Shown: in pieces, positions 21,099-37,608 of the stretch
How positions within the stretch are numbered: the first letter of the stretch is position 1
Layout: each line of letters opens with the position of its first letter
NCBI GenBank assembly: GCA_965217775.1
Contig: CBDCJH010000002.1
Location: forward strand, 768,001-832,000
Length of the DNA stretch: 64,000 nt
Source of the DNA: Acidobacteriota bacterium
GTDB taxonomy: Bacteria; Acidobacteriota; UBA6911; RPQK01; JAJDTT01
Direction: 5' to 3'
Notes under the pieces: generated by a model
The model's database searches: none
Told to the model about the DNA's origin: nothing
Seen by the model: the letters and a program-made list of their open reading frames with translations, nothing else
Position numbers and translations under genes: made by a program

Positions 21099-21506
21099 CT
21101 ATGGAACGACCTCGAACCCCATCTGCTGGAAGTGATGGTCCAACGTCAAGACCCTGCGAATTCGCAGTTCCCGCATGACAACGAAGCTGCAGCAGTCGGT
21201 GAAGGAGAAGTCCTTGTCACGGTAGCGGAAGAAAAGCGATCGTGCGCGTTCTCTTCGCGCTTCACCGACCGACTCCATGCGAAGTCGGGTCGACCCTTCG
21301 ATTTGCCGCCACCAGGCTTCAGCGGCGTCGAGACCGAGGCGAAACCGGATCGTGGTCAGGGTCTCGTCGACCACGTAGTCGGTCGTCACCAGGATGCCGC
21401 CCTCCGAAAGCCATCGATCCCGAGTCTGCCGTACGAACGGGCCCGAGGTATCGGCGCTGTCGGCGGCGGAAACCCATGCGGCCGTATCCACGTAGATGGG
21501 CTTCAT
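21099..21506 (-). CDS. VapC/PIN toxin
   Basis: YVDT, DYVVDET, FSFTDC.SF, TLDHHF. Confidence 0.88.
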   Translation of the reverse strand: MKPIYVDTAAWVSAADSADTSGPFVRQTRDRWLSEGGILVTTDYVVDETLTTIRFRLGLDAAEAWWRQIEGSTRLRMESVGEARRERARSLFFRYRDKDFSFTDCCSFVVMRELRIRRVLTLDHHFQQMGFEVVP

Positions 21507-21748
21507 CGATAAAGCAGCTCGTCGTGCCTCGCGGCGGCGTCCCCCGAGTCGGAAGAGCCGACGGGTGCGGCCCGGAACAGCGAATCCGATTCCAAGGGCA
21601 CGCTTTCGACAGAGGGAGCGCCTACCGGGACGATGTCGAAGGCCGGGCGGCTCCGGTACAGGACGGTGAACTTTTCACCATGTCTCACCTTCTCGACGAT
21701 GTCCTTCAATCTCTCTCGGAGCTGTTTGGCGTTGAGAATCTCATGCAT
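21503..21748 (-). CDS. Phd/YefM-type antitoxin
   Basis: NAKQLRERLKDIVEKVRHGE.FTV; overlaps the PIN gene start. Confidence 0.8.
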   Translation of the reverse strand: MHEILNAKQLRERLKDIVEKVRHGEKFTVLYRSRPAFDIVPVGAPSVESVPLESDSLFRAAPVGSSDSGDAAARHDELLYR

Positions 21749-21789
21749 CGGAGTGCTCTCGTCACAAAGTTCAACTTAAGTTAATCTTT

Positions 21790-21900
21790 GGGGCTTATAT
21801 ACCTAAGTGCCCTTGGCATACAGTTCTGGCACCACGCTTTCCCCAACGAGATACGTTCCGGTGCCCAGGGCAAGAACCCCAGCCCTGAGAATGTTCAGGG
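21790..21900 (-). ncRNA. Predicted omega-RNA scaffold (3' part) overlapping the tnpB 3' end
   Basis: Hairpins CAGGGC/GCCCTG, GGCACC/GGTGCC and TGTATGCC/GGTATATA at the position typical of TnpB omega-RNAs; 5' boundary uncertain. Confidence 0.6.
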
Positions 21901-22978
21901 CGGCATTGTGGTCCCTGTCCATTCCAAGTCCGCAGGCCCTGCACCGGAAGGTTTCGCTCCGTCCTGGATCGTGGCGGGCGCCGCACCGGTGGCAGTCCTG
22001 CGAGGTATATGCGGGATTCACTTCTACGAACTCCCGACCGGCCCATTCTGCCTTGTACTGGAGTTGATTCCGCAGAAGCCCCCATGATTGCGTCAGTATT
22101 TCTCGATTCAGCCCCTTCTTCTTCGAGCCCTTCGTTACCATCCCTTGGATGTTCAGCTTCTCCACAGCGATCAGACCGTGCTCACGAATGATCCTGCTGG
22201 AGAGACGATGGCAGGCATTACGGTTTCGGACCGATTCCCGGTGACGGAGCCGAGATAGCTGTACGATCCGCTTCCGTCTGGTCTTGGAAATCTTCTTGCA
22301 CCTGGAGACCTTTCTCTGCTGCTTTCGGATCTCCCCCCAGTCCCGTCTCTTCCGTTCGATCCTCTCACCCGTGGACAGCACCGCTCGCTTGCGGACGCCC
22401 AGGTCGATCCCCACCGAAGACTCGCATTTCGGTAGCGGCGGCTTCTCCACCTCGTAGGTCAGGTCCACATACACCCGGTTCGGCTTGCGGACAATCCGCA
22501 ACGCTTTCAACGGGCATCCGTCCGGCAACGGCCGGGACGGAAATACCCGGATCGTCGGAAAGCCCTTGGGGCGGATGGCGTATCCGCGCGCCCGCTTCTT
22601 CACCACGGTCGCCTTGGGGTCGACGATGTCGATGGTCTCCATCCTCGCCAGGGGCCGGAACCGAGGATACCCCGGCTTCTCCCCCGCCTTGCAGCGACGG
22701 AAGAACGCCTGGAAGGCCCGGTCCAACCGCATCAACATCCCACGCTCCGCCTTGACCGCCACCGACCCGAGCCCCTCCGGATCGTCCTTCCTCTGGGAGG
22801 TCAACCCCTTCATCTGATCGTACAGGGTCACGCCGCGTTGCTCGGATTCCCAGGCCGTCCTGCGTTCCTCCAGTGCAGCGTTGTACAGCCGATTCAGGAT
22901 GGACCTCACCCCGTCCAACCGCCGGATTCCACCCTTGGACAGCTTGGCTCTGCACTGGATAGTTGCGTGGCCTTTCAT
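21803..22978 (-). CDS. tnpB: TnpB RNA-guided endonuclease, catalytic triad intact
   Basis: LYNAAL, GYPRF, RuvC-I GIDLG, RuvC-II AVEKL, YTSQDCHRCG..CRACG Zn ribbon, RuvC-III DRDHNAALNI. Confidence 0.93.
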   Translation of the reverse strand: MKGHATIQCRAKLSKGGIRRLDGVRSILNRLYNAALEERRTAWESEQRGVTLYDQMKGLTSQRKDDPEGLGSVAVKAERGMLMRLDRAFQAFFRRCKAGEKPGYPRFRPLARMETIDIVDPKATVVKKRARGYAIRPKGFPTIRVFPSRPLPDGCPLKALRIVRKPNRVYVDLTYEVEKPPLPKCESSVGIDLGVRKRAVLSTGERIERKRRDWGEIRKQQRKVSRCKKISKTRRKRIVQLSRLRHRESVRNRNACHRLSSRIIREHGLIAVEKLNIQGMVTKGSKKKGLNREILTQSWGLLRNQLQYKAEWAGREFVEVNPAYTSQDCHRCGARHDPGRSETFRCRACGLGMDRDHNAALNILRAGVLALGTGTYLVGESVVPELYAKGT

Positions 22979-23112
22979 GGTCGGAATTGTAAACCATCAG
23001 CCTGAATTCTCGGCACTTACGTATATAATCTCTTAATCTTTCCTGAGAATTGAGGCAACTGGGCCGCGCCGCATGGCGCTTGCATGAACCGTCCAACCAG
23101 TGAGGATTTGTT

Positions 23113-34739: not shown

Positions 34740-35196
34740 CTGATGAGGGAAGATGTGGACAAAATCCGACGCGAACTGACTGGGTTCTACCGTTGCGGTG
34801 CCAATGACGGGCCAATAGAATCTTTCAGATATGATGAGAGGTGGTTGTATCCGGCGCGACTCCTCCTAGTTGATCGGTCGAAGGAACCGTAAGTGCGGTC
34901 TCGTGAGCCTCAGCCGCCAGAGCAGGACGTCAAGACCATGGATCACTTCTACCGACAGGTGAGGCTTGGCGCGCACAACCGACCGGTTTCTGTTGATAGC
35001 CACCGGCAGGTGAGCCGGATTGTTAGCAGGACAAAGCCATGGACTTCTCGACGCTGCTCGAAAACAAGGTGCTTCTGGCCGCCATTTCAGGCCTATCGGG
35101 CGTTGTCTTAACGCTGATTACCCAGCGGATTCTAGGGAAGCGCGGACTGTTCACCTACTTTGGGGGATTATATACGAAAGTGCCGAAACCTGAGCA

Positions 35197-35379
35197 TTAA
35201 CGCCGGTTCCGTGGCCGGTCTATCCATCTGATATTCACGGGCTGGACCAATGCACGGGCCAGCTCCTCGAAGTCTGCTTCCACGCGCATATCCGGTTCCA
35301 GTTCGGCCTTGGTCGGTTGGTAGGAATCCTTGACCAGTTCGATGGTGGGATGTTGGGGATTGTGTCTGGGTTTCTTCAT
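35197..35379 (-). CDS. Small IS1595 passenger protein
   Basis: 60-aa ORF translationally coupled to the upstream passenger and ending near the IR. Confidence 0.5.
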   Translation of the reverse strand: MKKPRHNPQHPTIELVKDSYQPTKAELEPDMRVEADFEELARALVQPVNIRWIDRPRNRR

Positions 35380-35881
35380 GCGGCCCTCGGCATCCTAGGT
35401 TGTTTCCCCTCAAAGTAGTCTTCCGCCGTGTAGATTTGAATCTTGGGCAGGTCCATGAAGCGTCCGGCGTTGACGGCGGCATTTCTCATGCCGTTGGTCA
35501 CTCGGTCTCGAAAGCAGGTGAAGATGCCGAGATCAGCTCCGGCCTGTCGACGTGCGCCGTTGAAGGCTTGGACGTGTCCGGGATTGGTAGAGCCGCCTTT
35601 GACCTGAGAAACGATGTCAATGAACCGGCCCTTGCGGATCGGGAGCCGTCCCACGCCGTCAATTCCGCCATCCCGTCTCTGGATTCGGTTCGGCTCCGTA
35701 CCCTCCACCAGAGCAGCAGCCCACCTCTCAAACCGGAATTTATCGATGCTGGCAAGCTCCTGAGCGTGTGTGATGGTATGGGGAAGGCCAATGTCTTGGG
35801 TGTGTTCCCAACGGATTCATCCGGGACATCCTCCCGCATGACTTCAAGGTGGTCTCCAAAGCTCAGTCGATTTTCGTTCAA
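35376..35881 (-). pseudogene. Internally deleted DNA methyltransferase/Mrr-like passenger
   Basis: N-terminus NRLSFGDHLEVMREDVPDESV (MTase start) and, in another frame, RDGGIDG...VSQVKGG (Mrr-like motif). Confidence 0.6.
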
Positions 35882-36828
35882 CCCACCAAATCCTTGTAAC
35901 GCAGCCGCTTTCCCACCATCCGGTCAGCGACCAGGGCCATTTGATCCAACGTGTCCATGCGCCTTAGGTTGTGACGTGCGGCAAACTCTCCAACGTATCG
36001 GTCGGTGTGCTGTTCCGAGAAGTGGTGAAAGGTTCCGTGGTAACTCCGCTTCAACATCGACCAGAACGATTCGGCTCCGTTGGTGTGGCAGTTGCCTTTG
36101 ACGTACTCCTGAAGAGAATGCTTGACCGTCTCGTGATTGACAAGCCGGCCGTAAGAGGTTGAATCGTCGGTGTAGATCTTGGCATCTTCTCCCACGTGCT
36201 CCAAGACGAAACGGGAGAGGGTTTCAGACTTGGTGTCAGGGACGACTCGGGCCGACACTTGGTTGGAGGGGCGATCTTTGACGGCAGCCACGGCCGTCTT
36301 TCCAACGGCTCCACGTCCCTCCAGTTTGGCGCGTTTGGCCTTCGGCATATTCTTCCGCTTTCCGCCGAGATACGCCTCGTCAGCCTCGACCGGGCCGGAG
36401 AACAGGGCCATTCCAGTCAGGTTCAGACCTTTCCGTATCCGGTGAGCAAGGTGCCAAGCCGTCTTCTGTGTTACGTCCAGGTCACGATGCAGCTTCATGG
36501 AGGAAACGCTCTTGAGGCTGGTAGTAAGGAGGTAGGTCGCAAGCAACCAAGTCTGATAGCCGAGTTTGGAGGACTGCATAACCGTCCCGACCCGGACGCT
36601 GAACCGCTTGCCGCAATCGCGGCAACGATACGGCATGGAAGGATGCTTGGCTCCGGTCTGGACGTTGGTGGAGCCGCAATGGACGCAACAGACTTCCTCC
36701 GGCCACCGCCGCTTTATGAACCATTCCTCAGCGGCTTTATCGTCGGGAAATCTCTTGAAGAATCCGCGCAGTGAAAGTCCCTCTCGGAACGCCTTTCCGG
36801 GTGCCTTGTTCCGTGTCTCGTAACTCAT
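35878..36828 (-). CDS. IS1595 family DDE transposase
   Basis: Zn ribbon CVHCGS..YRCRDC, VEADEAYLGG, IYTDD, HTNGAESFWS. Confidence 0.93.
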   Translation of the reverse strand: MSYETRNKAPGKAFREGLSLRGFFKRFPDDKAAEEWFIKRRWPEEVCCVHCGSTNVQTGAKHPSMPYRCRDCGKRFSVRVGTVMQSSKLGYQTWLLATYLLTTSLKSVSSMKLHRDLDVTQKTAWHLAHRIRKGLNLTGMALFSGPVEADEAYLGGKRKNMPKAKRAKLEGRGAVGKTAVAAVKDRPSNQVSARVVPDTKSETLSRFVLEHVGEDAKIYTDDSTSYGRLVNHETVKHSLQEYVKGNCHTNGAESFWSMLKRSYHGTFHHFSEQHTDRYVGEFAARHNLRRMDTLDQMALVADRMVGKRLRYKDLVG

Positions 36829-37608
36829 TGCATCCTCCTGACTTACAAGACATATTCTATAGGAAAGTACCGGGATTGTCAACCCCTACGGGAAACCTTT
36901 TCGGCACTTTCGTATATAATCCCCCTACTTTGTGTGGCACAACCGTGTCGGCGTATCAGCCGACGACGCGGTATTCGGGACCGTAGGCGTCACTTGGAAC
37001 AGCAACGTAGTGCCAAACCTGTACTCATCGACAGTTGAGCTGAGAAACGAAAGTCTCGCTGACTACCAGAACGTCGTCGTGCGCGTGTTCTCGAACGACA
37101 CGCGCCTCTTGTCAGAACGCGCGGACTTGATGGGAACGACCCGCACCCTGGAATGGAGCGAGGAGTTCTCCCGTCGGTTGGCAGTCCAGCCAGGAACCCA
37201 GCCGACGGCGGGCCAGATGGTTCTATACGGGCGCCAGCGCGAATACGCCGTGCCGACGATGAATCGTGGTCAGATCGTGCGTCTGACGTTTCTGAATGCG
37301 CCTGACGGTGAGGCTCAGCCCACGATTTGGCTCGACATCGTTCATCCCGGTGTGAAGACCCGGTTCCGAGTGCCACATCAGCAGTTTCTTGGGACGCCGC
37401 AGCCCATCGCCGCGCTCATCGGCGCGGCTCTGGGTGTTCCCTTCCTGCTCGTAGTCGTCGCCTTGACCGACGTGGCCTGGGCCGCTGGGGTTCTGTGCTT
37501 ACTCTATGGGGTCTGCGTCGTCTTCCCGGGCGCGTACTTTATCAAGGCGTGGCGGGGGATCAGAGAGTTGGTCGGTGGATGATAGGGGGCACCGGCGCCG
37601 AAGGGCGC

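Follow-up and report, generated by a model that had tools for sequence, protein, structure and literature searches.

A solo tnpB between IS1595-type transposon ends in an Acidobacteriota genome, with a candidate guide RNA built into the terminal repeat

TnpB is the ancestor of Cas12 and is under development as a very small genome editor. Here we describe a tnpB-bearing element in a window of 64,000 nucleotides from an Acidobacteriota bacterium (contig CBDCJH010000002.1; G000:C2:768001-832000), in which positions 21790-23033 form a 1,244-bp element with IS1595-type inverted ends and an intact tnpB as its single gene. Elements of the IS605 type, as reviewed recently, lack inverted repeats and produce no target duplication; their ends are hairpins, and they insert 3' of a fixed motif of 4-5 nt (PMC13565253). 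Canonical prokaryotic TnpB RNA is described as a scaffold whose 3' end forms a pseudoknot beside the guide (PMC13565253; PMC10711439). The text of a survey in 2023 distinguished six DDE-associated TnpB branches (DDE-1 to DDE-6), all with inverted repeats, as well as solo TnpBs whose ends are nearly identical to those of transposase-bearing relatives and which were taken as trans-mobilised (Altae-Tran et al., 2023, PNAS, PMC10691335). The main text of that survey names only IS630 (DDE-6), and a 2026 review lists ISL2, IS630 and IS1031 as DDE partners (PMC13565253). In Fanzors, repeats and duplications have been reported inside the guide-RNA scaffolds (Yoon et al., 2023, NAR, PMC10711439). The element at 21790-23033 is probably a copy of a non-autonomous insertion sequence (IS) of the IS1595 family whose whole cargo is an obligate mobile element guided activity (OMEGA) module, that is tnpB with an omega RNA over the gene's 3' end, a judgement that leans chiefly on how the element moves and on its guide RNA.

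Mobile insertion cassettes and derivatives of DDE elements resembling miniature inverted-repeat transposable elements (MITEs) have the repeats and duplications of a known family, carry a passenger gene and no transposase, and multiply in trans. The present element differs from them in that its passenger is an RNA-guided nuclease, in that the RNA is predicted to be fused to the transposon end, and in an orientation-specific rule of insertion site. With the IS1341 group of IS200/IS605 it shares a single tnpB, a predicted omega RNA over the 3' end with its scaffold reaching the transposon boundary, a guide-adjacent pseudoknot and the lack of a transposase of its own; the pseudoknot at the 3' end of the predicted scaffold is also a likeness to canonical TnpB RNA. 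Unlike IS605, this family has inverted repeats of 22-26 bp, variable 8-bp duplications (60 elements) and a DDE partner, which within the TnpB clade concerned is an IS1595 DDE transposase, whereas Y1 (HUH) TnpA neighbours occur only outside that clade. The likeness to DDE-1 to DDE-6 lies in the inverted repeats around tnpB, in a tnpB 3' end near (<250 bp) the transposon end and in the presence of a DDE transposase in some members (PMC10691335). IS1595 is named in the text of neither that paper nor the 2026 review, and this clade may possibly belong to one of the six branches (PMC10691335; PMC13565253). For the DDE branches the published text gives neither a target motif nor an RNA architecture, both of which are proposed here (PMC10691335). 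Fanzor1 and Fanzor2* are similar in being TnpB-family nucleases in elements with repeats and duplications, some of them non-autonomous, with the repeat forming part of the scaffold (PMC10711439). In Fanzors, however, the duplication is described as short and fixed, absorbed into the scaffold and helping to form the motif, and Fanzor1 as lacking the pseudoknot (PMC10711439), whereas here the duplication is a variable 8 bp, the pseudoknot is predicted to be kept by means of the repeat tip, and the host is bacterial. A literature search by title and abstract found no paper that links TnpB with IS1595 and none on TnpB with ISXO2, the supplements of PMC10691335 not being covered; as far as searched, the IS1595 partnership, the repeat-tip pseudoknot and the rule of a G next to the insertion are undescribed.

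The sole long open reading frame (ORF) of the element encodes a TnpB of 391 aa on the minus strand (Table 1). Its start codon is only 55 bp from the 5' tip, and its stop codon lies inside the 3' inverted repeat, 13 bp from the element tip. The protein matches OrfB_IS605 (7.9e-18) and Cas12f1-like_TNB (4e-26) in Pfam, and its best natural PDB match is ISDra2 TnpB (E=3.7e-31, residues 31-375). Asp192, Glu273, Asp356, Cys329 and Cys332 do not vary in an alignment of 20 homologues, in which at least 90% of the sequences also retain Cys346 and Cys349; following the ISDra2 literature, we take the three acidic residues and the Cys columns to be the catalytic and zinc-finger positions. The gene is under purifying selection, with a median ratio of non-synonymous to synonymous substitution rates (dN/dS) of 0.14 across element lineages (209 pairs), and an ORF of at least 360 aa is kept in 49 of 60 elements. 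The list of ORFs and Pfam gave no DDE_Tnp_IS1595 ORF inside 21790-23033, so the element is non-autonomous. The 5' tip of the window copy reads AGAG, where GGGG stands in 10 of the 12 other genomic copies, and with its 5' tip mutated the window copy may no longer be mobile. The original prediction, made from the letters of this window, had described an intact tnpB with all three RuvC acidic residues as sole cargo between inverted repeats, an upstream end agreeing with the IS1595 end at 21 of 24 positions, and an exact 8-bp target-site duplication of the same length as that of IS1595; the present analysis returned the same gene, the same count and the same duplications.

The presumed source of transposase is a second element of the window, a 1,762-bp member of the IS1595 family (Table 1). 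This IS1595 is present in the genome in five copies of 98.2-100% identity, four of them with an uninterrupted match to the 316-aa transposase, and three more distantly related members of the family are also present. The 5' end of the tnpB element is identical to that of the genome's 1,762-bp IS1595 at 21-23 of 24 positions; in a 22-base comparison with the IS1595 end, the 5' end agrees at 21/22 in most copies and the 3' end at 19/22, and the ends of the other IS1595-family elements in the genome fit less well. An 18-base end pattern (up to 3 mismatches) has five matches in the window, against 0.05 expected from shuffles, and four of the five are the ends of the tnpB element and of the IS1595. 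Genome-wide, each match to the end motif (up to 5 mismatches) lies in an IS1595 or in a tnpB element, and the IS1595 elements themselves likewise make 8-bp duplications. This end identity, together with the equal duplication length and the co-occurrence of the two elements, suggests that the IS1595 at 35163-36924 mobilises the tnpB element in trans. The transposase from the 1,762-bp copies, of which that element is one, would bind the near-identical ends and insert the tnpB element by an 8-bp staggered cut; with the anatomy observed and the enzyme assigned by inference, this account of movement is very probably right.

Thirteen full-length copies of the tnpB element, of 84-100% identity, occur in the genome together with fragments. 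Eleven have exact 8-bp duplications, mutually different, one has a duplication at 7/8 and one has unmatched flanks. The full 391-aa frame is kept in ten copies, and a variant of 86% identity is also open. Empty sites were sought in genomes of the same genus by searching the left and right flanks of the window copy separately. In G007 the left-flank match ends at C36:465748 and the right-flank match starts at 465741, an overlap of 8 bp, and the alignment has a single TAATCTTT with both flanks continuous; the 8-bp overlap of flank matches recurs in the congeners G006, G002, G004 and G001. The copy with unmatched flanks (C2:1186780-1188023) is otherwise intact and retains a G at -1 on its upstream side, and its differing flanking 8-mers are as expected after recombination between two copies.

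The RNA was modelled from an alignment of the last 230 nt of 16 Acidobacteriota elements, for which RNAalifold predicted 43 pairs, 19 of them with compensatory changes. A pseudoknot added by hand gave a model of 49 pairs, in which 95.5% of cells are paired, against 36-49% with slid partners; 21 of the 49 pairs are changed on both sides, and the observed score was reached by 0 of 500 shuffles. The repeat tip and the hairpin loop covary: 24 elements combine AAGCCCC with GGGGTT, 20 combine AATTCCC with GGGAAT (a further 2 have a G-U pair), and 2 combine AAGTCCC with GGGACT, while AATCCCC with GGGGTT, in 6 elements, has one mismatch. The minimum-free-energy fold of the single sequence also pairs GGGGUU with AAGCCCC. 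Rfam returned no family match to the scaffold at E up to 1. These data lead us to predict a structured omega RNA overlapping the tnpB 3' end, with a pseudoknot beside the guide and a scaffold that stops at the transposon boundary. The scaffold would run through the 3' repeat, with the inner repeat as its last stem, and the tip AAGCCCC would pair with the upstream hairpin loop GGGGUU; because the scaffold, tip-loop pseudoknot included, passes through the 3' repeat, the boundary between scaffold and guide would fall exactly at the transposon tip. By read-through, the guide of each copy would then consist of that copy's duplication and flank. This layer, with its scaffold through the repeat, its tip-loop pairing and its own-flank guide, is probably correct as predicted from the covariation.

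Logan contigs of all four metatranscriptome runs (4/4, from two studies) span the 3' tip into the flanks of other copies, and are at most compatible with read-through. Contig k-mer depth in two size-fractionated libraries is higher over the last 290-520 nt than upstream, and very short contigs at 22026-22075 reach a depth of 50-170, from which no inference is drawn, as contig depth cannot rank the parts of a gene and contigs show no ends. No contig spans the 5' tip, from which nothing is concluded.

Insertion sites were compared among elements with an end motif of up to 2 mismatches, a repeat of at least 16/24 and a duplication of at least 7/8, after removal of near-duplicate sites. A G stands just 5' of the duplication, in tnpB orientation, in 59 of 60 tnpB-only elements (56/57 under stricter criteria); in the window copy it is position 23042. 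The mirror position after the 3' duplication has no preference (C 17, G 16, A 15, T 12). In transposase-only IS1595 elements, G is found at -1 in 8/25 sites in transposase orientation and in 11/25 in reverse (Fisher, 59/60 versus 8/25, p=5e-11). Positions 1, 2, 7 and 8 of the duplication are A/T-rich in both classes, a shared pattern that is attributed to the transposase. The tnpB elements have a further asymmetry, with A(+1) in 45/60 against T(+8) in 18/60, and A(+3) in 38 against T(+6) in 18. In G061, a Caldilineaceae chromosome, G(-1) is found at 14/14 sites of elements whose two repeats agree at 23-24/24, which means that the tips are not the source of the asymmetry. When pooled, positions -2 to -5 hold at most 0.17 bits each, and by hand count position -2 is G in 9/12 sites of this genome's family. 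An end-pattern search of G061 for a MITE control gave 94 matches, with only a few short tnpB-less pairs. We predict from these sites that G(-1) is a minimal target-adjacent motif.

If so, the guide-matching sequence would follow a G in the empty allele and the C of the repeat tip in the occupied allele, and at the 5' junction of the occupied allele only 8 nt would match the guide. TnpB would cut only empty alleles, whether products of precise excision or uninserted homologous DNA, and recombination with an occupied copy after the cut would restore or spread the element. Empty targets of this kind would be supplied by precise loss between the 8-bp repeats or by homologous DNA that never received an insertion. 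Insertions without the G would be unprotected and would rarely persist, and G would for that reason be near-invariant at tnpB elements and not at transposase-only IS1595. That TnpB cuts empty alleles and that the G protects is a proposal about evenly poised between right and wrong. Joining the layers, we tentatively read the clade as adapted to a DDE transposon with almost unrestricted insertion: its motif would have shrunk to about one base (the G 5' of the duplication, perhaps read with the A/T-rich first duplication bases), its pseudoknot would be fused to the repeat tip, the difference between G and C at the junction would act as a self/non-self switch, and retention or drive by TnpB would have left its population footprint in the near-invariance of G. 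For this combined reading our confidence falls a little short of even.

Table 1. Positions of the tnpB element, its predicted RNA and the partner IS1595 in the window, with the basis of each assignment.
Feature	Position	Strand	Basis or remark
Left duplication copy TAATCTTT	21782..21789	.	On the minus strand, first 8 nt of the predicted guide; single copy at the G007 empty site
Predicted guide of this copy's omega RNA (duplication and adjoining flank)	21770..21789	-	Inferred from the scaffold ending at the repeat tip; length of ~20 nt assumed
tnpB-distal (3') terminal inverted repeat	21790..21811	-	Holds stop codon 21803-21805; predicted last part of the omega-RNA scaffold
RNA tip AAGCCCC, proposed pseudoknot partner of the hairpin-1 loop	21790..21796	-	Tip/loop covariation, helix 5, fold
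Predicted terminal stem	21797..21821	-	21814-21821 pairs with inner repeat 21797-21804; helix 8: 4/8 pairs changed on both sides, 92% of cells paired
Predicted omega-RNA hairpin 2 with inner hairpin	21828..21865	-	Helices 6 and 7: 7 pairs changed on both sides, 99% of cells paired
Predicted omega-RNA hairpin 1, loop GGGGTT (21875-21880) complementary to the repeat tip	21866..21887	-	Helix 4: 3 pairs change on both sides in 5/16 sequences, none broken
tnpB, 391 aa, intact	21803..22978	-	ORF, Pfam, alignment, PDB match
tnpB-proximal (5') terminal inverted repeat, tip mutated to AGAG	23010..23033	-	Sequence inspection, end-pattern search
Right duplication copy TAATCTTT	23034..23041	.	Sequence
Base just 5' of the duplication in tnpB orientation (C on +, G on the tnpB strand)	23042..23042	-	Candidate target-adjacent motif
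Autonomous IS1595-family element, presumed transposase source	35163..36924	-	Perfect 26-bp repeats; 8-bp duplication CTACTTTG at 35155-35162 and 36925-36932
IS1595 transposase gene	35878..36828	-	DDE_Tnp_IS1595 (Pfam) at 1.6e-38, with zinc ribbon

Within the genus, TnpB matches of 71-96% identity occur in five of the eight other genomes, and elsewhere in the order a search of 52 genomes belonging to other genera gave no TnpB match at E<=1e-20. Congener matches of 74-81% identity have repeats with the same starting tip and different subterminal parts, and mostly 8-bp duplications. G006 carries 8 copies of the same IS1595 (98-99% identity, intact transposase) and tnpB elements at 96%, and in G005 five of six TnpB matches have both repeats together with a duplication of 7-8/8, the only transposase there being broken and 57% identical. 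A scan of one genome per species with the 20-sequence alignment yielded 80 loci, with identities of 61-96% in Acidobacteriota metagenome-assembled genomes, 49-55% in Bryobacterales and Terriglobia, and 36-49% in Chloroflexota (Caldilineaceae, Dehalococcoidia, SAR202) and a few others. Scans for repeats and duplications found the same end type with 8-bp duplications in records of Bryobacterales, Terriglobia, Caldilineaceae and Dehalococcoidia. The Caldilineaceae chromosome G061 (loci L159-L188 and L421) holds about 25 full-length copies, six of them mutually at least 98% identical. Composite elements of 2,246-2,249 bp were found in a Dehalococcoidia record (L134, L135 and L142), in which an IS1595 transposase ORF is followed by tnpB with overlapping stop and start codons, between 24-bp repeats that are perfect in L134 and L135 and agree at 20/24 in L142.

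In a FastTree phylogeny of 225 TnpBs, one clade of 67 tips (support 1.0) contains every locus with this end type, and 47 of these tips have a repeat pair of at least 16/24 by scan. The age of the clade is indicated by members down to about 40-45% identity in two phyla, Acidobacteriota and Chloroflexota. All 11 TnpBs with a Y1 TnpA as their longest upstream ORF fall outside it, a count that is a lower bound, as only the longest upstream ORF of 100 of 141 loci was scanned; none of these 100 ORFs is an IS1595 DDE transposase. IS605-type loci are among the nearest TnpBs beyond the clade (31-42% identity).

The weight that this account can bear is limited by several observations. Every proposed step, the link between TnpB and the G included, is read from sequence, and a scan for promoters and terminators found nothing on the tnpB strand and no sigma-70-like promoter. 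Neither strand nor ends can be read from the metatranscriptome contigs, and DNA may be present in RNA libraries. The control set of IS1595 comprises only 25 sites from few genomes (the same genus and Bryobacterales), and the G rule has exceptions in L040, among the 60 tnpB-only elements, and in one of the three composites, which has T. A one-base motif is unusually short for TnpB, and per-lineage groups of at most 7 sites are too small to show longer motifs. The review adds that DDE cut-and-paste excision already leaves a break, so that a benefit from TnpB is not obvious (PMC13565253). Some of these points fit an alternative in which the architecture is as described and G(-1) is a target preference of the transpososome on tnpB elements, for example through subterminal asymmetry, or the product of another orientation-dependent filter, with TnpB doing something that has no bearing on the insertion site. 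In its favour, the A/T-rich positions common to both classes show that the site is clearly shaped by the transposase, and a one-base motif is atypical. Against it, the tnpB-less IS1595 elements, including this genus's own end-matching IS1595, have only 8/25 and 11/25 G, the G is found at 14/14 sites in G061 with its near-symmetric repeats, and the asymmetry tracks tnpB orientation in about 30 end subtypes and two phyla. We regard this alternative as unlikely, while giving it the most serious consideration of those weighed here.

The mover itself may be questioned, since the assembled G061 chromosome, with its many near-identical copies, yielded to a Pfam model and a protein search only a 64-aa fragment of IS1595 transposase, which also tells against our account, and G005 combines six TnpB matches with a single broken transposase of 57% identity. 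On this view the tnpB elements would no longer, or not only, be moved by a resident IS1595 transposase, and would spread mainly through TnpB-induced breaks and recombination or use a transposase delivered on a plasmid or phage. Yet every copy occupies a fresh site and has a separate 8-bp duplication, a signature of DDE insertion and not of homing, and a matching intact transposase is present in 4 copies here and in 8 in G006, which makes this version improbable. An accidental chimera, in which a tnpB of the IS200/IS605 type landed in an IS1595 MITE and was carried without functional integration, has in its favour the IS605-type loci among the nearest TnpBs outside the clade and the upstream ORFs, 11 of 100 being Y1 TnpA and none an IS1595 DDE; an ultimate origin of this tnpB in the IS605 lineage is plausible. 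The element leaves no room for IS605 ends, however, given the 55 bp from tip to start codon and the stop codon within the 3' repeat; the predicted RNA scaffold uses the repeat itself, with covarying loop and tip; and the clade is old, spans two phyla, is under purifying selection and includes elements with transposase and tnpB in one operon, so that the chimera is very improbable indeed. The original prediction had set adoption of an RNA-guided nuclease by a DDE family against just such a one-off insertion, and had named as checks other copies, an empty allele, the ends of homologues and a TnpB phylogeny. Adoption is borne out by the composites, by the two-phylum clade with the same ends and by the scaffold built into the repeat, and the one-off insertion is excluded by the composites and the scaffold; 11 of 13 full-length copies have exact and distinct duplications, the single TAATCTTT was found in G007 with the same overlap in four congeners, the homologues have the same inverted repeats and 8-bp duplications and not IS605-type ends, and the end type is shared by one clade of 67 tips. 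Its sense of novelty was too high, as the general idea of TnpB in DDE transposons, with branches and solo copies moved in trans, is already in the text of a paper of 2023 (PMC10691335).

Several further features of the loci were recorded. The element lies 34-41 bp upstream of a PhdYeFM-like antitoxin ORF (21503-21748, minus strand), which is followed by a PIN-domain ORF (21099-21506, minus strand), and tnpB points toward both, so that the insertion is in the probable promoter region of that toxin-antitoxin pair; the predicted guide of the window copy corresponds to the same region, at a site that is empty in G007. The fifth match to the 18-base end pattern (36854-36871, 3/18 mismatches) is inside the IS1595 of the window, just upstream of the transposase start, and this imperfect end copy may be a transposase-binding site over the promoter. 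The same IS1595 contains a passenger ORF of 110 aa (35376-35708, minus strand) with weak matches to NA-iREase1 (1.4e-07) and Mrr_cat (2.3e-04), and as all five copies measure 1,760-1,762 bp, all carry it. A 4.4-kb element at G000:C2:321834-326282 has IS1595-type ends and a partial IS1595 transposase (57% identity, residues 120-316), and further ORFs in it appear by eye to be a DNA methyltransferase-like gene and an inserted transposase of another family. In G061 the longer copies have an internal, facing pair of end-tip motifs within 38 bp (C1 435732-435769, with five comparable cases), an arrangement resembling a minimal two-end unit set within the element close to its 5' end.

Other end types were met among the TnpBs at the edges of the survey. 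L121:2380-3760 and L124:2381-3762 (Dehalococcoidia, SAR202) are nested in the clade and have another inverted repeat, starting GAGACGATTTC, with 6-7-bp duplications, which suggests that this subclade, formed by the two loci and their neighbours, has switched to another transposon family. Metagenome and viral contigs were tried as an independent set for the G rule and set aside, as their 160 loci, at 31-51% identity, are other TnpB lineages; none of the 160 combines a repeat of at least 12/16 with an exact 8-bp duplication. L205 (51% identity) has repeats with unmatched flanks. A relaxed repeat scan outside the clade gave 11 matches, 9 of them low-complexity or weak repeats without a duplication. 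L344 has an 18/24 repeat of another sequence type and no duplication. On a viral contig, L304:1412-2617 is a TnpB of 37% identity between perfect 24-bp repeats of another type, with no matching 8-bp duplication, and may be another capture by a DDE-type shell, in a phage-like contig.

TnpB is rare in DDE transposons, the commonest class, and the review puts this down to the excision break and to the inflexible target recognition of TnpB (PMC13565253). The family described here is a clean natural case, with many recent copies, a presumed partner transposase, empty sites, composite forms that resemble an ancestor, a guide RNA predicted to be fused to the tip, and an orientation-specific one-base rule at 59/60 sites that is not seen in transposase-only relatives. 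It makes directly testable predictions on the motif, on the pseudoknot and on how well the element is retained where the G is present or absent. If the combined reading is true, the nuclease would be compact with an unusually permissive motif, and a motif of about one base would give the enzyme practical value; for the biology of these elements, it would be the first functional evidence of OMEGA nucleases serving DDE transposons in prokaryotes.

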